Below, piece by piece: positions 9,687-42,275 of a DNA stretch of 44,212 nucleotides. Where the stretch lies: assembly GCA_022705345.1 (NCBI GenBank), contig JAKJEQ010000002.1, positions 1 through 44,212 on the forward strand. The letters are read 5' to 3'. The notes below the pieces were generated by a model that saw only the letters and a list, made by a program, of their open reading frames with translations, was not told the origin of the DNA and did not search any database. The DNA is from Planctomycetota bacterium. Lineage in GTDB: Bacteria > Planctomycetota > Phycisphaerae > Sedimentisphaerales > UBA12454. Numbering within the stretch: position 1 is the first letter of the stretch; each line of letters starts with the position of its first letter. Both the position numbers and the translations under genes were made by a program.

Positions 9687-10241
9687 TTAAACGCGCGTAA
9701 CGTAATCGCCGGTACGCGTATCGACTCGGACGACATCGCCGATTTTCACGAATGTCGGAACGTAAACGACAGCTCCGGTTTCAAGCGTCGCGGATTTTTT
9801 CTGGCCAGTCGCTGCCGCTCCTTTGATATCGGGCGGACAATCCGTGACCTTTAAATCGACGGTATTGGGCAGGACAATCGAAATCAGTTTGCCCTGATAA
9901 GAGCTTACGAGCAATTCGGTATTGGGTTTGAGGTATTTTTTGCCGTCGCCGAAGGCATCGTCGTCGAGCGTAATCTGGTCGAACGTTTCCAAATCCATAA
10001 TAATATGGCCGCTCGGTTCGGAATAAAGATATTCATATTTCCGTTTGTCCAGAGTCGCCTCTTCGATGTATTCTTCGGAGCGGATTCTTGCGTTTGAAAT
10101 CAGGCCGTCGGTAACGCTCTTGAGCTTTGTCTGGTAAATCGCTCCGCCTTTGCCGAGTTTTACATGTTCGAAATCTATGATCGTATAGAGCTTGCCGTCA
10201 ATGATGACGACTTGCCCTTTTTTCATTTCAGCGGCCTTCAT
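9687..10241 (-). CDS. efp: Elongation factor P
   Basis: 184 aa. N-terminus KKGQVVIIDGKLYTIIDFEHVKLGKGGAIYQTKLK carries the KOW-like domain with the conserved GKG loop. The C-terminus has two OB domains (ATLETGAVVYVPTFVKIGDVVRVDTRTGDYVTR). Confidence 0.95.
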   Translation of the reverse strand: MKAAEMKKGQVVIIDGKLYTIIDFEHVKLGKGGAIYQTKLKSVTDGLISNARIRSEEYIEEATLDKRKYEYLYSEPSGHIIMDLETFDQITLDDDAFGDGKKYLKPNTELLVSSYQGKLISIVLPNTVDLKVTDCPPDIKGAAATGQKKSATLETGAVVYVPTFVKIGDVVRVDTRTGDYVTRV

Positions 10242-10345
10242 CCCGTTAGACCTCTCAATAAGTTAGTCATTTTCTTACCTATATTAAAAAACACATTACT
10301 CTTTTATAATTCAAAACTTTCGGTATTAAAGAGGTCTAACGGGAT

Positions 10346-10618
10346 TCATCCCTCAGTAAGACCTTTTTTCATCCTATTCTTCAAATATCTTTTTCCCATA
10401 CCGGTTTTTAGATACCTTTCTCTTCGAAAAGCATCGGCCTTATCTAAACAGCCTTCAAAATAAATCAATTCAACCGGCAATTTATATTTTGTAGAATATA
10501 CCTCACCTTTCTGGTGCTGTTTTAATCTCTGTTTAAGGTTGCTTGTGCAACCAGTATAAAACGTGCTAGTTTTTTGGCATTTTAAAACATATGTATAATA
10601 CCAGCAAGGTTTAATCAT
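10346..10618 (-). CDS. GIY-YIG nuclease-family protein (UPF0213-like)
   Basis: 90 aa. YTYVLKC....FYTGCTSNLKQRLKQH has the GIY-YIG core spacing. It is followed by ERYLK.G.GKRYLKNR. Confidence 0.8.
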   Translation of the reverse strand: MIKPCWYYTYVLKCQKTSTFYTGCTSNLKQRLKQHQKGEVYSTKYKLPVELIYFEGCLDKADAFRRERYLKTGMGKRYLKNRMKKGLTEG

Positions 10619-10648
10619 ACTTATAGTATCGCAGAAAAGCGTTGAAAG

Positions 10649-11296
10649 TCAAGAATTAGCCAGTAAGGCTTTTATCTGCTTGCGGCGGTTTTTCTCGAAC
10701 TCCTCCGGAGTCATCAAAGGAGTGTGTCTCAGGGCTTTTTGCTTAAGGATGTCGCTGTATTTGATTCTGCCGGTTGGCCCGGAGGCGGAGTTTTCTTCTG
10801 ACGTCTTTGCCTGCTCTTGAGCGGGCAAAGGCAAAGACGTCGCCTTTATATTCATTCTTCTATTCCTTTCTAATAGGTCGAACCGCTGTTCGGGCGAAAA
10901 CGCAATATTGTACGGCGGCGAAGCGCCCAGATGTTCGGTTTGCCGACCGTCCGGCTGTTCGGGCTCAATCCAGTTTATCGGCGTAGAGCATTTGTCGCCA
11001 AAGCACTGCGGCACAATCACTCTTACCGTGTGATGTTTTCCTTTTTTTTCAGAATGCGCATAACCTTTTTTGATGATCTTCTTCTTCGCCAGCCTTCGCA
11101 CGAGCATTTCGACATATCTTTCGCTGACAGCGAGACTTTTGGCGATCGAGGCGTTAGAGCCCCAGAACGGCGAAGGCCAGAAACGACACAGAACTATCAG
11201 TATGAGCTTTTCGGCCACTGTCAAATCATTACGTTCGAGCAGAAAAGCGTACGCTCTCAAAAAAGGCAGAGCTGTTTTTGTTTTGCTTTCAGGCAT
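10649..11296 (-). CDS. Helix-turn-helix domain protein (phage/plasmid replication-initiator-like N-terminus)
   Basis: 215 aa. LTVAEKLILIVLCRFW...SNASIAKSLAVSERYVEMLVRRLAKKKIIKK is a winged-helix style DNA-binding segment. The rest is low-complexity. Confidence 0.5.
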   Translation of the reverse strand: MPESKTKTALPFLRAYAFLLERNDLTVAEKLILIVLCRFWPSPFWGSNASIAKSLAVSERYVEMLVRRLAKKKIIKKGYAHSEKKGKHHTVRVIVPQCFGDKCSTPINWIEPEQPDGRQTEHLGASPPYNIAFSPEQRFDLLERNRRMNIKATSLPLPAQEQAKTSEENSASGPTGRIKYSDILKQKALRHTPLMTPEEFEKNRRKQIKALLANS

Positions 11297-11880
11297 AAAA
11301 AATCTTTCGGTTTCGAGGTAAGTAAAAAACTTTTAAACGGTTCGTTTTTGAAGCATGGAAAATTCAGCGGCGCATATTCCTCGTCGCCCGCCTGCAAGAC
11401 GAATTTATCGCGCATAAAAGCGGCGAGAATTTTGTTTTGAGTGGTGTCCGGCACAGTGAAAATCAGCCTTTCGCCTGTCTGCGGTTTGAACGAAGCTATT
11501 AAACTTGTGCGGTTGTTGGAGGTCCTTCTTGAAACGCCGAAAAAACCGGTGTTGCTTCGGCAGCCTTTGTTCAGGTTGTTCTGCCGGATGGTCGCGATTC
11601 GAAGGTTCTGCCTTCTGTTGTCCAAAGGATTGCGGTTGATGTGGTCGATCACCTTTCTTTTTTTCGGAATCATCAGCATCCTTGCGAGCGATACGGTTTT
11701 TGAATTTGAAGCGAAATAGCCTCGAACGACGCCTTTGTCGAATTTCAGGGCGGTGATTTTTTTGAATTTGTGATAAGGACGGGGCTTTTCGGTGCCGTGA
11801 ACGCGATAATAAGTTTCCTCGTCGAGCAGCAAAGTGCCGAATTTCCGTTCGAGCGTTCTGTAATCCGATGAAACTTCCAT
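11257..11880 (-). CDS. HNH endonuclease with AP2-type DNA-binding domain (homing-endonuclease-like)
   Basis: 207 aa. VIDHINRNPLDNRRQNLRIATIRQNN is an HNH_3-type motif. It is followed by GFFGVSRR....ASF...GERLIF...AAFMRD, which is AP2-like. Confidence 0.75.
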   Translation of the reverse strand: MEVSSDYRTLERKFGTLLLDEETYYRVHGTEKPRPYHKFKKITALKFDKGVVRGYFASNSKTVSLARMLMIPKKRKVIDHINRNPLDNRRQNLRIATIRQNNLNKGCRSNTGFFGVSRRTSNNRTSLIASFKPQTGERLIFTVPDTTQNKILAAFMRDKFVLQAGDEEYAPLNFPCFKNEPFKSFLLTSKPKDFLCLKAKQKQLCLF

Positions 11881-11910
11881 TTTTCAGTCTCCTTAAAGAG
11901 TTTTTGAAGT

Positions 11911-12216
11911 TTAAACCTGTACTGAAACGGCTTCGGGACTTTGCGTTTGTTCCTGAGCGGAAAAGCCTTCGCCTTTGGGGGTTTTGGATTTCCTGGCGTA
12001 CGGTCTGACTGCGTAAAGCGGACAGGCAAGCGAGGTGCATTCCGTAATTTCGGTTTTCTTCCACATGCAGCACTCGAGGCAGAACGCCTTGATTGCCGCC
12101 GATTTGCTTTTGCCGGTGACCGCTTTTTCGTAGGCAGGGCGGTAGATTTTTGGAATTTTAGAGATGTGGCGTTTGATTTTTTGCCGGCGTGTGTCTTCTG
12201 CGCATAAATTTTCCAT
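11911..12216 (-). CDS. Small Cys-rich hypothetical protein (phage-like)
   Basis: 101-aa ORF. CLECCMWKKTEITECTSLACPLY suggests a metal-binding knuckle. It lies upstream of, and on the same strand as, the HNH gene. Confidence 0.45.
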   Translation of the reverse strand: MENLCAEDTRRQKIKRHISKIPKIYRPAYEKAVTGKSKSAAIKAFCLECCMWKKTEITECTSLACPLYAVRPYARKSKTPKGEGFSAQEQTQSPEAVSVQV

Positions 12217-12340
12217 AATAATTCTCCTTTAAAATAAGATGAAATGTTAAATTGGGGGGTTAGTAAGTTGAATTTTGAATAATGAAGATTGAAGAATGCT
12301 TCTGAAGGCATTTTCAATCTAATCCTTAAATTTTAAGGTA

Positions 12341-12432
12341 ATCTCTAAAAATTGTCATCTCGAGGAGTTTTTGCGGCTTTTTAGCCTACAAACGACGAAG
12401 CAGTCTCAATCCTTCGAATTATTAGAGGCTCC
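12341..12432. repeat. REP-like palindromic element, left copy of an inverted pair flanking citrate synthase
   Basis: TCTAAAAATTGTCATCTCGAGGAG...CGACGAAGCAGTCTCAATCCTTCGAATTATTAGAGGCTCC is the reverse complement, with a different central loop, of 14306-14381. Confidence 0.7.
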
Positions 12433-12535
12433 ATTAAATTATAGTCGGTATTTTACCATATTTTTTTTTAAAAGCAAGGATTTTCTGTAAACTATTTATT
12501 TTTTTTACTAAATATATAACAAGTTCAATAAAAGG

Positions 12536-12777
12536 TTCCTGATACCTTTTGTCTCTATTGTCAGAAAAAGACTCCTGACACCTTTTATCTCTATTGTTCA
12601 CAAGGACTTAGGAAAGCAAATTTATGAAAATTGTACCTGACCTTTTTAAGGCTGCATCAGGCAACGCCGTCAGAAAAAGACTCCTGACACCATTTATCTC
12701 TATTGTTCACAAGGACTTAGGAAACAAATTTATGAAAATTGTACCCGACCTTTTTAAGGCTGCATCAGGCAACGCCG
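12536..12777. repeat. Tandem direct duplication (109 bp + 108 bp) preceded by a ~25-bp partial copy
   Basis: 12561-12669 and 12670-12777 are near identical, differing by a few substitutions and one 1-nt indel (GGAAAGCAAA vs GGAAACAAA). 12536-12560 (TTCCTGATACCTTTTGTCTCTATTG) repeats the CTCCTGACACCTTTTATCTCTATTG core. Confidence 0.85.
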
Positions 12778-12910
12778 AGCGTTGAAAATCAAGACGGTTC
12801 GTATGCCGCAAGAAAGATTCTTGAATTAGTCATCCATATCCATTATAGTATGCCGTCTTATCGAGTGATGAGGCGGTTTTTTGGATTTTTCTTAAATTAA
12901 CAGGTGGAAA

Positions 12911-14305
12911 ATGTCAGACGCAATTACTCCGGATATCGAAGGTATCATACCCGAAAAAACACCCAAGGACCCGTTTTTAACTGATTTAGCAAGGCTCGCG
13001 AAGCAGAACAACAAAATAAATCCCGACCTTTATGAGCAGTTCCAGGTCAAACGCGGCCTGCGCAACGCGGACGGCACGGGCGTTCTTGCCGGTCTTACCG
13101 AAATCGGCGATGTGCACGGCTATATCGTCAGCGAAGGCGAAAAAGTCGCCATCAATGGAAGACTGAGATATCGCGGTATGGAAATCGAAGATATCGTCGC
13201 CGGTTTTCAGAAGGAAAAAAGGCACGGCTTCGAAGAGACCGCTTATCTGCTGCTGTTTGGCGAACTGCCGAAGAAAAAAGAATTGACGAAATTCTGTCAT
13301 ATGCTCGGAAAAAACCGAAAGCTCCCTGACGGCTTTACGGAAAATATGATCCTCAAAGCGCCGAGCAATAACGTAATGAACAAACTGGCAAGAAGCGTTC
13401 TGGCGGCGTATTCCTACGACAAGACGCCGGAAGACCGCTCGCTCAAAAATATTCTGCGTCAGTGCATCGGACTTATCGCGAGATTTCCGATTTTCGCGGC
13501 ATACGGCTATCAGGCAAAATCGCATTATTATGATGGCGAGAGTTTATATATTCACACGCCTGATGAAAAATTATCGACAGCCGAAAACTTTTTAATGCTG
13601 ACAAGGGCGGACAAGCAGTTTTCAAAAATGGAAGCGGATCTGCTCGACTTGTGTCTTGTTCTGCACGCAGAGCACGGCGGCGGAAACAATTCGACTTTCA
13701 CGACTCACGTAGTCACATCATCGGATACGGATGCTTACTCGGCGATAGCCGCGGCGATAGGTTCGCTGAAGGGTTTGAAGCACGGCGGAGCTAACATCCA
13801 GGTTATTAAGATGATGGACGATATCAAGCAGAACGTAAAGAATTGTGAAAGTGAAAACCAGGTTGCCGATTATCTTGCCAAGATAGTGCGGAAAGAAGCG
13901 TTTGACGGCACGGGGCTGATTTACGGTCTTGGCCACGCGGTTTATACAATATCCGACCCGCGCACGGCATTAATTAGAAAACAGGCTGCGCGGCTTGCGA
14001 AAGAAAAGGACCTCGAATGGGAATTCGATTTGTACGCCATGGTCGAAAGGTTAGCGCCGGGGATTTTCCAGAAAGTGAAAAAATCCGACAAGCGGGTATG
14101 TCCGAATGTGGATTTCTATTCAGGTTTTGTATATAGGATGCTCGGTATCCCGACCGAACTTTATACTCCGCTTTTCGCGATCGCAAGAATTTCGGGATGG
14201 TGCGCTCATCTGATTGAAGAAACGGTCAGCGGCGGAAGAATAATCAGGCCCGCGTATAAAAGCGTAGCGGAAGAAAGAGAGTATATTCCGACATCGAAAA
14301 GATAA
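12911..14305 (+). CDS. gltA: Citrate synthase
   Basis: 464 aa. HAEHGGGNNSTF, GLGHAVY (the GxGHxVY catalytic His motif) and NVDFYSG are all typical of the citrate synthase family. Confidence 0.9.
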   Translation: MSDAITPDIEGIIPEKTPKDPFLTDLARLAKQNNKINPDLYEQFQVKRGLRNADGTGVLAGLTEIGDVHGYIVSEGEKVAINGRLRYRGMEIEDIVAGFQKEKRHGFEETAYLLLFGELPKKKELTKFCHMLGKNRKLPDGFTENMILKAPSNNVMNKLARSVLAAYSYDKTPEDRSLKNILRQCIGLIARFPIFAAYGYQAKSHYYDGESLYIHTPDEKLSTAENFLMLTRADKQFSKMEADLLDLCLVLHAEHGGGNNSTFTTHVVTSSDTDAYSAIAAAIGSLKGLKHGGANIQVIKMMDDIKQNVKNCESENQVADYLAKIVRKEAFDGTGLIYGLGHAVYTISDPRTALIRKQAARLAKEKDLEWEFDLYAMVERLAPGIFQKVKKSDKRVCPNVDFYSGFVYRMLGIPTELYTPLFAIARISGWCAHLIEETVSGGRIIRPAYKSVAEEREYIPTSKR

Positions 14306-26849: not shown

Positions 26850-28316
26850 ATGTCCATATCTTGTTTAACAGAAGAGCAATTATTCGAAGCTGTCGGTGCT
26901 ATTAAAGCAACTAAGAGCAAAAGGCCGATCACTCGGACCGATTTAAAAAATTATGTCTCTTCGTTTTTGAATATCAATATCAGCGACCAGAAACTCTGTC
27001 CGGGCCACGATTCGCCGATGGATTATTTATGGCACAGTTATAACAGCGATTTTGACTCCAGCGCTAACGGGGATTGCGTAGTGTGGGCGGGCAGGGGCGG
27101 CGGCAAAACATTCATCGCCTCAATCGCCGCGCTTCTTGACTGTGTATTCAAACCGGGATGCAAAACGAGGATTCTCGCAGGCAGCGAAGAGCAGGCGCAT
27201 CTGATGTATGACAATCTGGCAAGTTTGGCACAGGACCATTTTCCTTACCTGCTTTTTGAGAAGCAAAAAAACAAGTGCCGATTTGTCAATGGTTCCGATG
27301 TCCAGGTGCTTACGCAGTCAATGGCTTCGGTTCGCGGCAGTCATATTCATAAGATTCGCTGCGATGAAGTCGAGCTTTTTGAAAGGCCGATTTTTGAGGC
27401 CGCAAAGTTCATTACAAAAAGCAGCGGCGGCATCGTCGGAGCTATGGAAACTCTGAGCACAATGCATCATCCTTTCGGGATTATGCACGAGCTTGTGGAA
27501 AAAGCGAAAGACAACGGAACAAAAATATTCAAATGGTGCATCTGGGAAGTGATCGAAAATTGCAGGGACAGAAGCTGCGGCCAATGTCCATTGAACAATG
27601 ATTGCCGAGGGCGGGCAAAAAAAGCTAACGGCTTTTATAAAATAGATGACGTAATTGCGCAGCTAAAACGAACAAGCAGGGCGATGTTCGATTCGGAGAT
27701 TCTTTGTTTGCGGCCGTCGCTGCAAAATGTAGTCTTCGCGGAATTCGATCCCAATTTACATATAAAATCTGTTGAATATAATTCCGAACTTCCTCTGTAT
27801 CGCTCGATAGATTTTGGGTTTGTTAATCCTTTTGTATGTTTATGGATCCAGGTGGACAGCAAAGGCGTTGTCAGGGTCATAGATGAATATGTCCAGAGCC
27901 GAAGGACGATAGATTATCATGCGGATGTATTGAAAAACAGAAAGCCTTACAATGAAGAGAAAGTGATAATGACTTTTTGCGACCCGGCCGGTTCGGGCGT
28001 TAACGATGTTACGGGCACAAGCCCTGTCAGTATGCTGCGGGCGAAAGGAATCAGGCTTCGCTACAAACGAAGCTTGGTTCTCGAAGGGGTAGAACTTGTC
28101 AGAAAGGCTCTTCGGACAGGCGACGGAAAAAGCAGTTTAGTAATCAGCTCGCGATGCGGCAATTTGATACAGGCAATGCAGAGTTACCATTATCCGCAGA
28201 GCGGCTCAATTGAAACTCCGCAGAAAGACGGCGTTTACGATCATCCAATCGACGCGTTGCGTTATTTCTTTGTAAATCACAACAGTTTGTCGCCAGCAAA
28301 AACAAGAAATTACTGA
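26850..28316 (+). CDS. Phage terminase large subunit (TerL-like), orphan
   Basis: 488 aa. Walker A VWAGRGGGKTF, Walker B IRCDEVELF, and nuclease-domain acidic motifs IDFGFVNP, TFCDPAGS and YDHPIDALRYF. Good RBS (GAGGAGG) upstream. Confidence 0.8.
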   Translation: MSISCLTEEQLFEAVGAIKATKSKRPITRTDLKNYVSSFLNINISDQKLCPGHDSPMDYLWHSYNSDFDSSANGDCVVWAGRGGGKTFIASIAALLDCVFKPGCKTRILAGSEEQAHLMYDNLASLAQDHFPYLLFEKQKNKCRFVNGSDVQVLTQSMASVRGSHIHKIRCDEVELFERPIFEAAKFITKSSGGIVGAMETLSTMHHPFGIMHELVEKAKDNGTKIFKWCIWEVIENCRDRSCGQCPLNNDCRGRAKKANGFYKIDDVIAQLKRTSRAMFDSEILCLRPSLQNVVFAEFDPNLHIKSVEYNSELPLYRSIDFGFVNPFVCLWIQVDSKGVVRVIDEYVQSRRTIDYHADVLKNRKPYNEEKVIMTFCDPAGSGVNDVTGTSPVSMLRAKGIRLRYKRSLVLEGVELVRKALRTGDGKSSLVISSRCGNLIQAMQSYHYPQSGSIETPQKDGVYDHPIDALRYFFVNHNSLSPAKTRNY

Positions 28317-29051: not shown

Positions 29052-29708
29052 CTATCTGCCCCCTCGTCCTCCTCCAAACCCGCCTCGCCCCGGCATTGAC
29101 ATTCCGCGTTCCTGCATCCGTTTCTGCATCGCCGCCATAAATTGTGTTCTTTGTGCTCGCTGTAAAGCGGTGCCTCTTTCTGATCTTGCGCGAGCATTTG
29201 CAGGATTGGCGCGCCGAGCGGCTCTTTCTGCCTGCCGCGCCTGTCGGTTAGGATCGTTCATATCTCTCGGCCGTTGCGGCCGGGGGGTATCCCGTCGCAT
29301 TTGTTCAAAATTTGCACGTTGTGCCTGCATCTCATCGATCATTCTATCAAGATATGCAGTTTGCTGTTCTTTTGGTACAGTAAAATATGTTTCGATATGA
29401 TAATCCATCAATTTTCGACCGCTCGCCATTGTATAAAGGAATTTTTCTCTATCCGAAAGCTGTTTGTATCTTTCGCTGCTGCGGTAATCGATGATCTGTT
29501 TTGCGCTTTGCTTTTCAGGATTAGGCATATTGGTATCTGACCAGTTGATCCTGCGTCTGCCGAATGTATCAGGCTCTTGGCCGCCTTTGAACATTACATA
29601 CAATCCCCCCGATGCTGACAGAACAATGACAGAAACGATTGCGATTATAATTGTGATTTTCTTTTTATTTGGTTCCGGCTTTTTAAGTTTTCCATTTATC
29701 GCTGCCAT
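29052..29708 (-). CDS. Hypothetical membrane-anchored protein with an Arg/Gln-rich tail and RGG terminus
   Basis: 218 aa. One TM helix (ITIIIAIVSVIVLSASGGLYV). C-terminal low-complexity region ...RQARQAERAARRANPANARARSERG... ends in GRGGFGGGRGGR. Its start overlaps the stop of the upstream prepilin-like gene by 1 nt. Confidence 0.55.
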   Translation of the reverse strand: MAAINGKLKKPEPNKKKITIIIAIVSVIVLSASGGLYVMFKGGQEPDTFGRRRINWSDTNMPNPEKQSAKQIIDYRSSERYKQLSDREKFLYTMASGRKLMDYHIETYFTVPKEQQTAYLDRMIDEMQAQRANFEQMRRDTPRPQRPRDMNDPNRQARQAERAARRANPANARARSERGTALQRAQRTQFMAAMQKRMQERGMSMPGRGGFGGGRGGR

Positions 29709-30247
29709 TATTTGTTCCTTTCTCTATCTGCTACGAGCGTGTCTGCGTACATATACATAACTGAACCGGATTTTCCGTCTTTTCCGTGAAAAGGCTCATA
29801 ATCTTTTAATATCCAAACTTCGCTTGTGCCGAACCTTTTTGCAAACCAACTGTCCTCTATTTTTCTGCCGCCAAGCCGATTATTATATTCGTAACTAGCT
29901 CCTTCTTCTGCAAAAAAAGTAGTGTTTTTGCCGTACCACTTGTCAGCCGGACATTTAAGTGCCTCCTTACCGGACAAATATTTCCCCAAAGTTCCATAAA
30001 GCGAAACGGAATTAGGTTCTTCCTGCTTAGTCGAATTTGGCAAATTGAAAATAACCGGCATTACATTGCGGTTCTCATCCAGATACATCCGAAATGCGAT
30101 TGAACACCCGTGGAGGTTTTGTTTGCAGCCGACACGGTAAGCGCTTCGCCTTGCCGCACCAAGCGCGGGCATCAATATTCCCATCAAAAGAGCGATTATC
30201 GACAGAACAACCAACAATTCAACCAGTGTAAAACCCTTTTTCTGCAC
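29708..30247 (-). CDS. Prepilin-type N-terminal cleavage/methylation domain protein (type II secretion pseudopilin-like, DUF1559 style)
   Basis: MQKKGFTLVELLVVLSIIALLMGILMPAL is the canonical G/FTLVE prepilin leader plus hydrophobic helix. Confidence 0.85.
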   Translation of the reverse strand: MQKKGFTLVELLVVLSIIALLMGILMPALGAARRSAYRVGCKQNLHGCSIAFRMYLDENRNVMPVIFNLPNSTKQEEPNSVSLYGTLGKYLSGKEALKCPADKWYGKNTTFFAEEGASYEYNNRLGGRKIEDSWFAKRFGTSEVWILKDYEPFHGKDGKSGSVMYMYADTLVADRERNK

Positions 30248-37049: not shown

Positions 37050-37919
37050 CTACTTTTTAAATTTAATATGACAAATCACTGCCAGCGACCACAGGATATC
37101 AGCGGAGGCAATGAGTTTCGTTTCGTATTTTTCGTTAATCGGGATAAGATGAACGGAGGAACCGTCCATCCTTACCAGCTTGCAAGTTACGCCAATGGCG
37201 TTGTTTATGCGAACTACAGCGGGCATTCCTTCGACGGCGGCAACAGACGGGCTGACAATAACTATGTCGCCATCGTTAATCTGCGGGGCCATACTGTCGC
37301 CATCGACCTGCAAGGCAAAACTATCAGGGAAAAGATCGTGAATCTCGCTGCATTCGACAAATTGAGTGACCTCAAGATCATTGGCGGCAGTTATTGAGTT
37401 TATGACCGAAGCGTTCAGATGGCTGCTGACCAGTTGCTCGATTTGCGTTTCGACGAGTTTTGAATCGGTGCCTATTGCCTTGCTCCACAGGCCGGCAATG
37501 CCGGCGGCAGTTCGGCCGAGAACGGGAATCCAGCCGTTTCTCGTGGAACTTTTTGGTTTTAGCCGAGATTCAAGGGCGGATTTTTCTTCCAGCAACGTCA
37601 GAAATGCGGAAATTGCGTTGGCAGATTGCGGCTGCGAAAGGAGGATTTTCTGGGTTTTTTCGATAATTTTGAGGTTTTCGCCAGAAACATCCCCCGCACC
37701 TGATTTTCGGCCGGTTAAAAGCCAGTTCAGGTCGATGCCTGCAATTTGGGAGATTTTTATTAATATGGGCACCGGCGCAAGGCGGTCTTTTTCATAATAA
37801 CTGTACGTAGAGGGACTTAGGCCAAGCAATTTGGCGAATTTGTTTCGGCCGCGCACGCCGGCTGTCGAAGTTCGGACCTCGATAATCCTCTGTATTATGC
37901 TATTTTCGAGTTCATCCAT
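37050..37919 (-). CDS. CI/LexA-type repressor: XRE-family HTH + S24 peptidase domain
   Basis: FAKLLGLSPSTYSYYEKDRLAPVPILIKISQIAGIDLNWLLTG is an HTH_XRE motif. The C-terminal LQVDGDSMAPQINDGDIVIV....VTCKLV carries the S24 Ser/Lys dyad context. The start is set at the internal MDELEN (37919), not the hydrophobic upstream extension. Confidence 0.8.
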   Translation of the reverse strand: MDELENSIIQRIIEVRTSTAGVRGRNKFAKLLGLSPSTYSYYEKDRLAPVPILIKISQIAGIDLNWLLTGRKSGAGDVSGENLKIIEKTQKILLSQPQSANAISAFLTLLEEKSALESRLKPKSSTRNGWIPVLGRTAAGIAGLWSKAIGTDSKLVETQIEQLVSSHLNASVINSITAANDLEVTQFVECSEIHDLFPDSFALQVDGDSMAPQINDGDIVIVSPSVAAVEGMPAVVRINNAIGVTCKLVRMDGSSVHLIPINEKYETKLIASADILWSLAVICHIKFKK

Positions 37920-38048
37920 AAAAAATATTCGCTTATGCGAAGTTTTCTCTTGCAATATTCGCAAATGCGTATAAAACAAGACTGAAATGTGTAATATTTC
38001 TAAGAATAATAACACAAAAAGGGATAATAGTCAAGGAGCGTTATCAAA

Positions 38049-38207
38049 ATGAAGAGCAGCAAAAAACGAAAAACCGCGCGGACAAAGAATAAAATCAGGC
38101 CGGCAAAAATGGCTAGAATCCATGAGCATGTCAAACAACTTATAGCGTTACTATCTATGCAGCAAGCCGTTACGCACAATCTCGAAAGGGAAATCAATAA
38201 CCCATAA
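38049..38207 (+). CDS. Possible 52-aa basic small ORF divergent from the repressor
   Basis: ATG at 38049 preceded by AAGGAG. It encodes MKSSKKRKTARTKNKIRPAKMARIHEHVKQLIALLSMQQAVTHNLEREINNP. It is below the ORF-track cutoff and has no recognisable fold, so this is speculative. Confidence 0.2.
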   Translation: MKSSKKRKTARTKNKIRPAKMARIHEHVKQLIALLSMQQAVTHNLEREINNP

Positions 38208-38364
38208 TCGCAAGATAACCTGAGAATAACGCGCGGATTTAAAAACGCCTCATTGGGAATTCCAGGGAACCCAGGCAAGTATGCCGAACTGAATAGCTTT
38301 AAATCCGCGCATATTTTATCTGCGTGGTTTTTGCGCAATTGTGCAATTTGTTGACGCATAAGCG

Positions 38365-38495
38365 CAGAAAAAGTGCAAAAAAAAGGTGGGGAAAAAGTGC
38401 GAAATTAGCGAAAAAAAGTGCGAAAAAAGCGGAAATAAGTGGTGTAAAAGTATCTGAAAAGTGGGTGAAAAGACGGAAAAAGTGTAAAAATAGAA
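38365..38495 (+). repeat. Iteron-like array: six degenerate direct repeats with ~21-bp period (core GAAAAAGTGYRAAA)
   Basis: AAGTG cores start at 38371, 38395, 38416, 38437, 38459 and 38480, giving spacings of 24, 21, 21, 22 and 21 nt. They are embedded in A-tracts. The ORFs called here are low-complexity artefacts. Confidence 0.6.
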
Positions 38496-38628
38496 ACAAT
38501 TCATTATCTCAAATTACTGGTATATTGTAACTTAAAATTATCTGGAAAGCAAGAGAAATAGTTGATCAGTTCCGCCTGAGGCGGATAAATGTCAGTTGTC
38601 ATTATCGATAAAATATTGAGATTTTTGG

Positions 38629-38656
38629 TTGAATTTGGTTTTTATAATAATATAAT
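38629..38656 (+). promoter_or_regulatory. Candidate sigma-70-type promoter for the four-gene operon
   Basis: TTGAAT (38629-38634), a 16-nt spacer, then TATAAT (38651-38656). It ends ~90 nt upstream of the first gene. Pattern match only. Confidence 0.3.
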
Positions 38657-38744
38657 GCGTAATGAGGTAAATTGTTATGGATGAACAAAATCGTACCCTT
38701 AAGGTATTTATTTCGTAATAATAATTCAATATGAGGGAAAATCT

Positions 38745-39311
38745 ATGTCTAAAATTTCAAGTAGAAATATGTTACTTTTGATGCTTGGAATTGCTAAAAA
38801 ACCAAAGATTGTGGGTGAAGGAATCAATGGTATTACACGCCTGCAAAAACTACTGTTTTTATTGGAAAAAGAAGGTTTAATTAAAAAAGTAGAAGGAGGT
38901 TATCAGTTTCAAGCATATAAAGCAGGCCCATATTCTCCTACACTATATGATGATTTAGAATTTTTAGAAAATCTTGGTTTTATTAAAAGTGAGGTTTCTG
39001 GCACTGCAACTGAAGAAGAAGCTGCTGACATGGATTTTACATTTGAAGAATTAATGGATGAAGAAGTAAAAACAGCGGACGTGTACGATGAGAAACGTTT
39101 TACTTTGACTGAACAAGGGCAAAACAAAGTTAAAACTTTGATTGAATCAACTGATTATGAACCATTAATTGAAGGAATTAGAAAAATAAAATCAAAATAT
39201 GGTGATTATTCTTTGGATGATTTGCTTTATTATGTTTATACCAAATACCCTGAAATGACTACCGAATCAGAAATTAAAGATCATGTCCTACGTAAAGGGC
39301 GGAAAAGGTGA
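38745..39311 (+). CDS. Panacea/DUF4065 (SocA/GepA-like) domain protein, possible antitoxin/regulator
   Basis: 188 aa. GITRLQKLLFLLEKEG....YQFQAYKAGPYSPTLYDDLEFL matches the Panacea pattern (T.LKLQKLLY ... F.AW..GPV.P.lY) recalled from the family. RBS GAGGGA. AT-rich codon usage. Confidence 0.55.
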   Translation: MSKISSRNMLLLMLGIAKKPKIVGEGINGITRLQKLLFLLEKEGLIKKVEGGYQFQAYKAGPYSPTLYDDLEFLENLGFIKSEVSGTATEEEAADMDFTFEELMDEEVKTADVYDEKRFTLTEQGQNKVKTLIESTDYEPLIEGIRKIKSKYGDYSLDDLLYYVYTKYPEMTTESEIKDHVLRKGRKR

Positions 39312-39913
39312 CAAAAACTTTACTGGAATGGTCGTTAGGTGGTCATGTTGCGATTATTGTAGTTGCATTGACTTTTTACAAATTTGTCTTTTCAGAAATA
39401 GCTGAAAATGTCTTAGAAAAAGGGAAGATGATCGCCAAAAAAATCGAAGCAAAGATATTTTTGGAACTATCTATAGTTTTGAAACCTTTTCTCGACAAGG
39501 AACGCACTAGTTCAATTATCATAGTAAGCCAATGGAATATTGATAGTGAAGAATACAAGGAGCAATGTATAGATATCCAAGGGACTGAACAATACAAAAA
39601 TGCAATCCATGATTTTATAAAGAGTAATACGAATCCGATGTTAGATTTTAGATTTCTCAAAATAAAAATAGATAGATGCCTTTTTTGGAAACGCTACTTA
39701 AAAAAATCTGTAACAATACTTGTTGGTTTCCATTTGTTAATTGTAGCGTTTGAAGTTGTTTGCAAGATATACGGAATCTGTAGTGATAATAAATTAGTTT
39801 TGGTTGTTTTAATTTTGTCATCATTTTTGACGATTGCAAATTGCTTTTTTCCACTTTGGCCAATTAGCCATTACAATGATGATATAGAAGACATTGAAAG
39901 ACTCTATGCTTGA
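39308..39913 (+). CDS. Small membrane protein (one N-terminal and two C-terminal TM helices), no known family recognised
   Basis: 201 aa. The GTG start overlaps the upstream stop (GTGA). TM segments are HVAIIVVALTFYKFVF, VTILVGFHLLIVAFEVVCKIYGI and LVLVVLILSSFLTIANCFFPLW. Confidence 0.6.
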   Translation: MTKTLLEWSLGGHVAIIVVALTFYKFVFSEIAENVLEKGKMIAKKIEAKIFLELSIVLKPFLDKERTSSIIIVSQWNIDSEEYKEQCIDIQGTEQYKNAIHDFIKSNTNPMLDFRFLKIKIDRCLFWKRYLKKSVTILVGFHLLIVAFEVVCKIYGICSDNKLVLVVLILSSFLTIANCFFPLWPISHYNDDIEDIERLYA

Positions 39914-40322
39914 TTTAACAAAAGAAGCGTCGTTGTTACAACCAGTAACAGGTTATATAAAAAGAAAAGGATTCAATGTACAAGGAACAGAAATTCCATT
40001 CTACAATCGAAGCGTTGACATATACGGTTTTTCCAAAAAAACAAATAAAACAATAGCTATTGAATTGAAACTGAATAAGTGGAAGAAAGCCTTTTCACAA
40101 GCAGTCATTTATCAGTTGTGTGCTGACGAATCTTACATTGCGATGCCACATAAATATACTATACGAGTAGATAGAAATTTACTAATAACTTTTGGAATCG
40201 GATTAATCGCAGTAAATGATATTGGCAGGTGCTTCAAAATGATTGAAGCACGCCAATCGTCAGTTGTCAAAAACTATTATAAAAAAAATCATATCGAATT
40301 TCTTAAAAGGTTGGAAAAATGA
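39906..40322 (+). CDS. Small PD-(D/E)xK nuclease-fold protein
   Basis: SVDIYGFS....KTIAIELKLNKWKKAFSQAVIYQ...ESYIAMP fits the hhhD-x(10-15)-hhhExK core with the following helix and strand. The ATG at 39906 overlaps the upstream stop by 8 nt (the track start at 39894 is a TTG). Confidence 0.5.
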   Translation: MLDLTKEASLLQPVTGYIKRKGFNVQGTEIPFYNRSVDIYGFSKKTNKTIAIELKLNKWKKAFSQAVIYQLCADESYIAMPHKYTIRVDRNLLITFGIGLIAVNDIGRCFKMIEARQSSVVKNYYKKNHIEFLKRLEK

Positions 40323-41635
40323 GTAATAAGCCACAACTTATCATTCGAATGGGAAGTCATGCCGAAAAAGAATACATTATGAAATTAAATCATAAAGTTT
40401 TCGATGGAATTGTAATTGGGGCTAACGTAGTGGAAGCAACAGCAGGTGCTACTGCTAGTTTGATTGGTAAAAAATTGAATTTACCTTATTATATCGATCC
40501 AATGACTTATGTTTTCGGTTGTGATCTAGATGGCATCAAATCAGAACAAAAAAAAATGATTCAAGGAAAAAAGAAAACAGTAAGAGATTACAAGCGGTCA
40601 TATTTAGGATTAGCTGATGAATTAGGATATGTATTTGTAAATGCACTAAAAACTGATACATGTATTCAGCCGGACATTTTCAATCCGGCAACTATAAAAA
40701 GAACTTGTCAAAACGTTATAGAATATCAACGCAATAGAATTGTTGAGGAATTTAAGAAAGATGAAGAATATGAAGAATATGCAGATGCAATTAAACCACC
40801 TGCTGGAATTTTTTCGCCATATTTCTATGTGAATAACAGAAGAAGTTTTGAATTATTTCTAGAATTAGCTCATGCAACAACAATAATAGAAACAAATTTA
40901 CCTGTTTATTCTGTTTTATGTGCAGATGTAAATTCATTAAACGATGAATCGTTCATCGAAAAAGTTTTAGAAGAAGTCCCTAAAACAGGTATCTACGGTG
41001 TATGGCTTTGGTTTTCAAAATTTGATGAATTCGAATCAAATATGAAGACGCTCAGAAATTTCAAAAATTTAGTTCATGGATTAAGTAAAAATGGCTTAGC
41101 TGTTTTTAACAGACATGGGGGATATTTTAGTATGGTTTTAAATAAATTGGGTATGACCGGCATAAGTCATGGTATTGGTTATGGAGAAAAAAAAGACGTA
41201 TTTCAAATAGAAGGCCCTCCCAATGCTCCAGTCGTACAATATTATTTACCCGATTTGTTTAAAAGATTTGGGATTGATAACATCGAAAGATGTTTCGACG
41301 AATTAGGCGTTACAAAGCCCCAACATTTTCATAATTCTATTTGCGATTGTGTTATATGTAAAGGAGTTATTAAAAATAATATTTCTGAATTTAGAGAATT
41401 TGGAGAAACACATTATGCCAGACTTGAATCTAAAAGAGAAACTCAAACTCCAGCAGCTGCTAAACGCAGCCGTTTCCATTTTTTGATGAACAGAATTAAA
41501 GAAAAAAATTTTATTAATAAAAGCAACTTGAAAGAGATTATTGAAAAGATGCAAGAGTCACAAGAAAAATGGGAAGATCTTGACTCAGTTATCCATTTCA
41601 ATTATTTAGATAATTGGATCAATTCTCTTAATTAA
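40319..41635 (+). CDS. 438-aa protein with a TGT/DpdA-type zinc motif (CxCxxC...H) and an alternating beta/alpha (TIM-barrel-like) pattern; function unknown
   Basis: The ORF itself is solid (the ATGA overlap couples it to the previous gene). NSICDCVICKG....RSRFHFLMNRIKEK resembles the CDCxxC...H-hydrophobic helix of tRNA-guanine/archaeosine transglycosylases. The confidence value refers to this functional family call. Confidence 0.4.
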   Translation: MSNKPQLIIRMGSHAEKEYIMKLNHKVFDGIVIGANVVEATAGATASLIGKKLNLPYYIDPMTYVFGCDLDGIKSEQKKMIQGKKKTVRDYKRSYLGLADELGYVFVNALKTDTCIQPDIFNPATIKRTCQNVIEYQRNRIVEEFKKDEEYEEYADAIKPPAGIFSPYFYVNNRRSFELFLELAHATTIIETNLPVYSVLCADVNSLNDESFIEKVLEEVPKTGIYGVWLWFSKFDEFESNMKTLRNFKNLVHGLSKNGLAVFNRHGGYFSMVLNKLGMTGISHGIGYGEKKDVFQIEGPPNAPVVQYYLPDLFKRFGIDNIERCFDELGVTKPQHFHNSICDCVICKGVIKNNISEFREFGETHYARLESKRETQTPAAAKRSRFHFLMNRIKEKNFINKSNLKEIIEKMQESQEKWEDLDSVIHFNYLDNWINSLN

Positions 41636-41750
41636 TAAAAAAAACTAATTAAAGAATCTTACAAAGCTATCTTTGATTCTGCCCAAAAAAAATAGCAATA
41701 CGAATTTTTCCAAGAGGATGCTTAACGGCAAAGCTCACCCTACTAAATCC

Positions 41751-41808: not shown

Positions 41809-41816
41809 GAAACACA

Positions 41817-41901
41817 AATAAAAAAGGGCGAACTCCGATTAGATACTTGCAGATTCTTCAAAGAAGCTAATCGACGTATCTAACGGGGCAAGCATATCGG
41901 A
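41817..41901 (+). repeat. ~85-bp direct repeat, copy 1 (contains a 13-bp-stem hairpin)
   Basis: AAATAAAAAAGGGCGAACTCCGATTAGATACTTGCAGATTCTTCAAAGAAGCTAATCGACGTATCTAACGGGGCAAGCATATCGGA. The arms CCGATTAGATAC / GTATCTAACGG pair. Confidence 0.8.
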
Positions 41902-42082
41902 CAAATGAAGATTGACCCATTCGGCTTCGCTCAGGACGGGGATTGAAGATTTGAGAACCGGTAAGATTTGGTATTTTTCAGCGTTGATTTTTTATGGAGG
42001 CCGGATCCTTCGACTCCGCTGCGCTTCGCTCAGGATGACAAAGGGCAGGCGGGGCAGGCATAAAACTAATATCAAAATTTAA

Positions 42083-42166
42083 AATAAAAAGGGCGAACCC
42101 CGATTAGATACTTGCAGATTCTTCAACGAAGCTAATCGACGTATCTAACGGGGCAAGCATATCGGA
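42083..42166 (+). repeat. ~85-bp direct repeat, copy 2 (a third, truncated copy lies at 42217-42244)
   Basis: Near-identical to 41817-41901, with a few substitutions and one missing A. AAAAAAAAAGGGCGAACCCCGATTAGAT recurs at 42217-42244. Confidence 0.8.
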
Positions 42167-42275
42167 AAAGCAGGCAATACGAATTTTAAATTTGAAATTG
42201 AGATTTCAAAATTCAGAAAAAAAAAGGGCGAACCCCGATTAGATTTCTTTAAAAACGTTGACTGATCTTCGAGAT

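Follow-up and report, generated by a model that had tools for sequence, protein, structure and literature searches.

A translationally coupled operon conserved as a unit

We analyzed a 44,212-nucleotide (nt) stretch of DNA from a Planctomycetota bacterium (contig JAKJEQ010000002.1; this whole stretch is referred to below as the window), in which an earlier note made from the sequence alone had singled out a four-gene operon as a candidate defense or addiction module. The four genes, here designated A, B, C, and D, form a cassette that is conserved as a unit in bacteria and archaea and was horizontally acquired. It is best read as a Panacea-regulated module in which a swappable toxic effector accompanies an invariant core consisting of a nuclease and an enzyme predicted to resemble tRNA-guanine transglycosylase (TGT).

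In the open reading frame (ORF) listing, all four genes lie on the plus strand: gene A at 38745-39311 (188 amino acids [aa]), gene B at 39308-39913 (201 aa, GTG start), gene C at 39906-40322 (138 aa), and gene D at 40319-41635 (438 aa). Their stop and start codons overlap. The A stop and B start meet in GGTGA (a 4-nt GTGA overlap), the C start and B stop in ATGCTTGA, and the D start and C stop in ATGA, such that each downstream start shares codon letters with the upstream stop. These coordinates and junctions confirm the overlapping operon described in the earlier note. An alternative TTG start at 39894 would extend C to 142 aa; alignment with homologues favors the ATG at 39906. Purine-rich stretches resembling Shine-Dalgarno sequences lie 5' of A, B, and D, with GAGGGA ahead of A. 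A candidate sigma-70-like promoter (TTGAAT-16-TATAAT, plus strand, 38629-38656) about 90 nt 5' of A agrees with the consensus at 10 of 12 positions; promoter-like sites in the region are no more numerous than in shuffled controls, and this site is to be read as a consensus match only.

The cassette has a G+C content of 31.5%, and the remainder of the window has 44.2%; windows of the same size taken elsewhere average 44.0% (standard deviation, 2.1; minimum, 38.8%). G+C at third codon positions (GC3) is 20-29% in genes A to D versus 45-64% in neighboring genes. The dip that the earlier note had estimated from hand counts is real and large, but its figure of 52-58% for the flanks was too high, as only the right-hand pyruvate:ferredoxin oxidoreductase (PFOR) gene reaches 54%. 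The acquired low-G+C segment that holds the cassette (approximately 31-34% G+C) spans 38202-41700. Its right edge is approximate and taken from the G+C profile only, while its left edge is the point at which nucleotide homology to a metagenomic contig (L068) ends, at window position ~38201. This contig is syntenic with the window from the DNA polymerase I (Pol I) gene through an S24 repressor gene, encodes a TRAM protein 93% identical to that of the window, and contains no homologues of A to D. A clean empty site was not obtained from L068; its far side differs and has no PFOR gene within 8 kb.

To assess conservation, we scanned one genome per species for 185,579 species and followed this with iterated local hidden Markov model searches at the loci. 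Only 50 cassette loci were found in the species scan, spanning at least 12 phyla of bacteria and archaea. The bacterial groups are Planctomycetota, Acidobacteriota, Gemmatimonadota, Pseudomonadota, Sumerlaeota, Latescibacterota, Ignavibacteriales, Bdellovibrionales, Armatimonadota, and Chloroflexota, and two archaeal lineages are also represented. The order A-B-C-D held at all examined loci with enough upstream DNA; the independent loci that have all four genes so arranged number more than 40, and C and D always overlap. Across 33 loci, the four genes also co-vary in pairwise identity (r = 0.73 to 0.85), indicating that they travel together. The homologues are thus not scattered without synteny, an outcome that the earlier note had allowed for.

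The low G+C content is not peculiar to the window. At 39 of 40 loci elsewhere the cassette lies below its flanks (mean difference, -8.4 points; Wilcoxon P = 3.6e-12), and the dip consequently survives the proper computation that the earlier note had called for. Flanking genes change from locus to locus. The cassette is also carried on plasmids, namely, Arthrobacter plasmid pSI-1 (NC_010494.1, approximately 61,825-64,653), where A-B-C-D stand beside a relaxase gene, and two Haloarcula plasmids. Together with the syntenic relative that lacks the cassette, these results bear out the proposed horizontal acquisition. A complete cassette is present in CP042910.1 at approximately 4,921,781-4,924,737 (positions 10001-12957 of our locus L128) and again in ABCE01000009.1 (L129); NCBI labels A "Panacea domain-containing protein [Gimesia]," and we take the strain to be the cultured Gimesia maris DSM 8797. 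An 861-aa GHKL/HATPase_c_3 protein is encoded 3.5 kb downstream at the Gimesia locus. Some copies have degenerated: in a decayed copy from Vicinamibacterales (L055), insertion or rearrangement has left a truncated B and a fragment of D about 5 kb apart, and disrupted copies have a split C (L032), a split D (L045), or a split B with a truncated D (L056).

Folds and motifs of the four proteins

Scans of the four proteins against PADLOC-DB v2.0.0 (2023), Pfam, and NCBIfam matched no model for B, C, or D; only A touches PADLOC models, and it does so partially. Full-text literature searches returned no description of the four-gene cassette. Both results agree with the earlier note, which had recognized no named system here. 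Sequence and structure prediction likewise uphold the domain combination it had proposed: a Panacea-like A, a B with three transmembrane (TM) helices, a PD-(D/E)xK fold in C, and a CxCxxC...H motif in D.

Protein A matches the Pfam model SocA_Panacea (PF13274/DUF4065) over 107 of 113 profile positions with an E value of 1.1e-4 and 23.5 bits, below the cutoff of 25.7. The same model is matched by 25 of 35 A family members, and homologues of A are labeled "Panacea domain-containing protein," "DUF4065," or "SocA" in NCBI and UniRef, some with precomputed PF13274 matches. Residues 30-95, in the Panacea-like N terminus, also match PADLOC PDC-M19A (E = 6.7e-14), covering only the N-terminal 62 of 294 model positions, and PADLOC models for a Type I S subunit and for DarG (C-terminal region) are matched in part as well. 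An acidic insert occupies approximately residues 84-120. PDB sequence searches with the profiles of A and C returned nothing meaningful. By its sequence, A appears to be a divergent Panacea/SocA domain protein, the match being borderline yet consistent, and we predict that it acts as a regulator, antitoxin, or sensor.

In protein B, a single TM helix near the N terminus is separated by some 100 soluble residues from a pair of TM helices near the C terminus. Over 40 homologues share this layout at a mean identity of 21%; in Chloroflexota cassettes the architecture is unchanged and sequence similarity is no longer detectable. The position of B is itself variable. In the archaeon Candidatus Wolframiiraptor (L057; contig QMUP01000062.1, 1304-1717), the slot between A and C is taken by a PIN_3 protein (E = 9.7e-13) whose gene overlaps its neighbors by 4 nt on both sides and is translationally coupled to them, and on the two Haloarcula plasmids (L061 and L063) the slot is empty, leaving A-C-D only. 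These variants define A, C, and D as the core and B as a replaceable slot, and B is predicted to be a swappable effector.

In the alignment of C homologues, E7, E29, D38, E53, K55, W59, and Q65 are invariant. The AlphaFold2 (AF2) model of C, built from a shallower alignment of database homologues, has a predicted local distance difference test (pLDDT) score of 89.6 and an alpha-beta-beta-beta-alpha-beta core (H-E-E-E-H-E). Its best Foldseek match is 3dnx (SPO1766; E = 1.4e-6, query-normalized template modeling score [TMq] of 0.70); NucS/EndoMS, restriction enzymes, and Hjc come next. Members of the C family give weak Pfam matches to MTES_1575, YhcG_C, PDDEXK_9, NERD, Hjc, MmcB-like, and Mrr_cat; homologue L058 is one that gives a weak MmcB-like match. 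With D38, E53-x-K55, and nucleases among its Foldseek matches, C has both the core fold and the D...(D/E)xK motif that define the PD-(D/E)xK superfamily. We conclude that C is a predicted PD-(D/E)xK nuclease whose catalytic motif is intact and whose fold is nearest those of MmcB-like and NucS proteins.

Protein D has no Pfam or NCBIfam match at E <= 1, no PADLOC match, and no PDB match by sequence, either as a single sequence or as a profile, although its family is sizeable (no fewer than 367 clusters when grouped at 90% identity, and 924 when grouped at 50%). The AF2 model of D (pLDDT, 92.4; predicted template modeling score, 0.91) is a TIM barrel of eight strands into which a hairpin and a helical region are inserted. 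The barrel is followed by a C-terminal subdomain in which C342-x-C344-xx-C347...H387 are predicted zinc ligands. The best Foldseek match in the PDB is the archaeosine tRNA-guanine transglycosylase ArcTGT (1iq8_A; E = 3.7e-4), at a TMq of 0.49 compared with about 0.3 for generic barrels at similar E values, and it covers clearly more of D than other barrels do. DpdA (7ui4) ranks 28th among the Foldseek matches, bacterial Tgt is not ranked among them, and in the BFVD viral library a putative viral "queuine tRNA-ribosyltransferase" ranks second. Tgt matches in the phage collection are of the bacterial type only.

Among 131 diverse members of the D family, 128 carry CxCxxC, and D60-P61, Q137, P167-Y168-F169, W231, E237, Y288-G289-E290, H387, and W433 are near universal. 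In the model, D60, E237, and E290 are placed just after barrel strands. The D homologue on Arthrobacter sp. AK-1 plasmid pSI-1 (L062, 5926-7155) lacks CxCxxC entirely and retains the equivalents of D-P, G-Y-F, and G..E, suggesting that at least one lineage can do without the zinc site; the motif is likewise missing from family members P0163 and P0195. Domain fusions were considered as a clue to the function of D and set aside; the longer members are chimeric or extended and carry no informative domain. By sequence (Pfam, NCBIfam, PDB, and hhalign), D shows no significant match to the TGT superfamily; its predicted (beta/alpha)8 barrel and CxCxxC...H subdomain are those expected of that superfamily. 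We therefore refer to D as an unannotated family of predicted TIM-barrel enzymes, "TGT-like in fold and zinc motif," and do not call it a demonstrated TGT homologue, because there is no sequence match and the hhalign comparison was not significant.

Surroundings of the cassette

In other genomes, the cassette often, but not always, adjoins retrons, restriction-modification genes, cyclic-oligonucleotide-based antiphage signaling systems (CBASS), SIR2 genes, or toxin-antitoxin genes. On three related contigs (L064, 1677-3310; L065, 1-1622; L125, 5535-7156), the cassette is immediately preceded by a retron-type reverse transcriptase (PADLOC RT_VI, 6.7e-55) and a 176-aa partner protein; the retron stands beside a prophage-like region, and in L125 an insertion sequence element (DDE_Tnp_1) lies between retron and cassette. 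Three IMG/VR matches to D also sit in retron/prophage-like regions. On Haloarcula sinaiiensis plasmid pHsi540, a SIR2_2/PDC-S25 protein is encoded directly after D of the A-C-D variant (L063, 9369-10856). On the Haloarcula sp. JP-L23 plasmid, the A-C-D variant is closely preceded by a 1421-aa type IIG/DrmMI-like methylase (6.5e-102; L061, 700-4965) and followed by a 405-aa zinc-ribbon protein and a 271-aa membrane protein. Other loci are surrounded by Abi_alpha, JAB/ThiF/E2 (E1/E2/JAB) genes, BrxR, and a SMODS+SLATT CBASS (L130); by VapBC, HigBA, ResIII with a methyltransferase, and an AAA_21 ATPase (L124); or by a Prim-Pol element and RHS genes (L127). Among 12 loci, no conserved operator or terminal repeats were seen beside the cassettes.

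The window differs in this respect. The earlier note had described a defense-island setting with a CI/LexA-type repressor on the left. This protein, a 321-aa HTH and Peptidase_S24 (LexA/CI-like) protein encoded divergently from the cassette (37050-38015, minus strand), has orthologues with 57-66% identity in L068 and in a second locus, L069; in both, the orthologue adjoins the TRAM-domain gene as it does in the window, and the cassette is missing. We considered it as a part of the system and rejected it, since it is native, is syntenic in L068 in the absence of the cassette, and does not stand beside other cassettes. The setting within the window is not a defense island; the association with defense islands is found only in other genomes.

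Upstream of the cassette, the array that had been called iteron-like (38368-38484) proved instead to be a purine-rich repeat with units like AAAAAGTGCGAA and periods of approximately 10-12 and 21 nt. It looks like phased A-tracts, lies 140-260 nt 5' of the candidate promoter and inside the segment missing from L068, and could be a curved stretch of DNA, a place where a silencer binds, or a remnant. On the right-hand side, the reported repetitive extragenic palindromic (REP) units and direct repeats do exist, but they come down to a single hairpin element that is present three times between D and the PFOR gene: two full copies of 89 nt with 94% identity (41816-41904 and 42081-42169) and a 28-nt partial copy (42217-42244). 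The element has a minimum free energy of -24 kcal/mol (z = -3.3), has no copy elsewhere in the window and no Rfam match, and may be REP-like, like a miniature inverted-repeat transposable element, or a small RNA. No tRNA gene was found in the window, and no Rfam family scored above threshold in the cassette region.

The earlier note was right about an orphan terminase. A large-terminase-like gene (Terminase_6N and Terminase_6C; 26850-28316, plus strand) stands alone about 10 kb from the cassette, and no other phage genes were recognized among its ten neighboring ORFs. A prepilin-type N_methyl protein is encoded at 29708-30247.

Interpretation and relation to known systems

We favor the reading, at a probability of about one-half, that the cassette is a self-contained mobile conflict module, serving in anti-phage or anti-plasmid defense or in addiction and expressed as one translationally coupled operon. 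Antitoxins are usually encoded first in their operon, and A, the first-encoded and Panacea/SocA-type protein, may bind the other components and either keep them inactive or sense a trigger. With its cytoplasmic domain and C-terminal TM hairpin, B would be an interchangeable toxic membrane effector like the membrane-depolarizing PanT toxins; the part of an interchangeable suicide effector would be played elsewhere by the PIN protein of Candidatus Wolframiiraptor and possibly by the SIR2 gene after D on pHsi540. C and D would be the unvarying enzymatic core, directed at nucleic acid, in which D may attack the base-sugar bond, by base excision or exchange, and C may cut as a small structure- or lesion-directed nuclease. 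Infection or loss of the element would lift the restraint imposed by A, and nucleic-acid damage, membrane depolarization, or both could then halt the invader or the cell. We infer every functional step of this scheme: the binding partners, the substrates, the trigger, and the outcome. A narrower form of it casts D as a new TGT-like transglycosylase branch whose target, a base to be removed or replaced, lies in the DNA of the invader (e.g., hypermodified or 7-deazaguanine phage DNA) or in tRNA, with C cutting the resulting site and the Panacea sensor gating the swappable suicide effector. Base excision or exchange would then be linked to abortive infection in one defense mechanism; in that degree of detail the proposal is speculative and, on balance, unlikely.

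Several observations weigh against a conflict module of this kind. The link between D and TGT is one of fold only: unrelated TIM barrels reach Foldseek E values similar to that of the ArcTGT match (~4e-4), the Pfam TGT model is unmatched, and when the D profile was compared with E. coli Tgt by hhalign, the alignment was confined to the CDCxxC stretch (ICDCVICKG/ECDCYTCRN) at 0.8% probability, which is not significant. B, C, and D are each a possible toxin, and with three of the four proteins in that position the division into effector and core is drawn from variability alone. No homologue of D was found in 50,697 phage records. The flanks within the window are housekeeping genes (Pol I, a TPR protein, the TRAM protein, the S24 repressor, and PFOR), those of several other loci (L007, L009, and L126) are purely metabolic, and when the three nearest genes to either side of the cassettes were scanned, roughly and without a null model, only about 10 of 244 neighbors matched PADLOC models.

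Three other explanations were weighed, and all rank below the conflict module. The cassette could be a restriction-modification system of the Dpd type, in which D inserts a modified base (e.g., 7-deazaguanine from the host queuosine pathway) as a mark of self, C restricts unmarked DNA, and A and B are regulatory or accessory. The TGT-like fold and zinc motif predicted for D, with DpdA (7ui4) among its structural matches, would fit this, as would a nuclease with a restriction endonuclease fold that always overlaps D and forms with it the invariant core in all variants. However, the Dpd partners (ParB-like DpdB, the DUF328 protein DpdC, the helicases and nucleases DpdD-K, and a preQ0 supply) are found neither in the cassette nor as conserved neighbors, and no PADLOC Dpd model is matched by A to D. 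C, at only 138 aa, has no specificity domain, and its closest folds belong to structure- or lesion-specific nucleases (MmcB-like, NucS, and Hjc); D, as noted, lacks a Pfam TGT match. A Dpd-type system would also leave the Panacea protein and the swappable membrane/PIN slot without a role, and we consider it improbable.

An equally improbable alternative is pure addiction, with A as an unstable antitoxin and B (plus C, D, or both) as toxins that stabilize the cassette or its plasmid and have no antiviral role. The Panacea domain and first position of A, the plasmid carriage, the resemblance of B to membrane PanT toxins, the many chromosomal copies without defense neighbors, and the decayed or disrupted copies described above are all consistent with it, but a conserved 438-aa enzyme with a separate conserved nuclease exceeds the needs of an addiction module, and the cassette repeatedly occupies positions in clear defense islands. 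Many toxin-antitoxin-like modules have, moreover, proved to be defense systems (PMC10440598). Least probable is a niche DNA repair or damage tolerance cassette, in which D would remove a damaged base in the manner of a glycosylase and C would be an MmcB-like repair endonuclease. The structural matches of C, led by 3dnx and followed by the repair nucleases NucS/EndoMS, and the weak MmcB-like Pfam match in L058 point in this direction, as does the LexA/CI-type S24 repressor adjoining the cassette divergently in the window. The repressor gene, however, is native to its location and adjoins the cassette at no other locus, and patchy spread, low G+C content, plasmids, a Panacea partner, PIN substitution, and defense-island neighbors are unlike housekeeping repair.

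If the conflict module functions as we propose, it would be a widespread system, on chromosomes and plasmids of both bacteria and archaea in at least 12 phyla, that current defense-system finders have missed. It would give the D family, whose 924 clusters have no Pfam, NCBIfam, or PADLOC model, its first functional setting; add to the theme of TGT-fold enzymes recruited into immunity; and extend Panacea as a universal regulator or sensor from a single toxin to a multienzyme module. Because the cassette is present in cultured Gimesia (the strain taken to be DSM 8797) and on an Arthrobacter plasmid, it is directly testable.

Among known systems, the PADLOC entry PDC-M19, for which we found no literature, shares only residues 30-95 of A with the cassette, and B, C, and D are unmatched. 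The BRC system, the nearest published defense candidate that contains a TGT, is unrelated and has HerA, PglZ, and a STAND NTPase at its center. C shares a minimal core and an E...D...ExK...Q pattern with the MmcB-like and NucS nucleases (3dnx, 2vld, and 5gke); unlike them, it is bound in an operon to D and has no NucS-type N-terminal DNA-binding domain, and its sequence matches are weak and scattered.

TGT-fold enzymes are known in immunity from DpdA, of the Dpd systems for DNA 7-deazaguanine modification and restriction (PMC12839542), and from Cap10 of type IV CBASS (bioRxiv 10.1101/2025.04.06.647259). D resembles TGT, DpdA, and Cap10 in its predicted order of domains, a barrel and then the zinc subdomain, with ArcTGT and DpdA both among its structural matches. 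It differs from them in having no detectable sequence homology, in the longer spacing between its cysteines and histidine (39 residues), and in its conserved acidic residues, D60, E237, and E290, which are only candidate equivalents of the TGT catalytic aspartates. In contrast to the Dpd and Cap10 systems, the cassette contains no QueC/preQ0 genes, DpdB/C, or CD-NTase.

The cassette also resembles the PanA-PanT toxin-antitoxin pairs. PanA antitoxins bind and neutralize very diverse toxins, including membrane-depolarizing proteins with C-terminal TM helices (PMC8832971), and a role as a sensor has been put forward for the Panacea domain (Ernits et al. 2023, PMC10440598). As in PanA-PanT, the first gene encodes a Panacea-type protein and overlaps by codon with a gene for a membrane protein with C-terminal TM helices, and the partner slot is swappable, with one archaeal cassette having a PIN RNase there. 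The differences lie in gene number, with four genes here (three in Haloarcula) versus the published two or three with the toxin within 100 nt, a spacing that A and B themselves share; in A, which scores under the Pfam gathering threshold and has an acidic insert; and in the C and D enzymes, which are more constant than the presumed toxin B. Thus, the cassette has a borderline form of the Panacea domain that marks PanAT members and departs from them in its number of genes; the PanAT discovery pipeline left out operons of more than three genes (Kurata et al. 2022, PMC8832971). What is new relative to all of these systems is the conserved pair of enzymes, C and D, within what we propose to be a conflict module under Panacea control.

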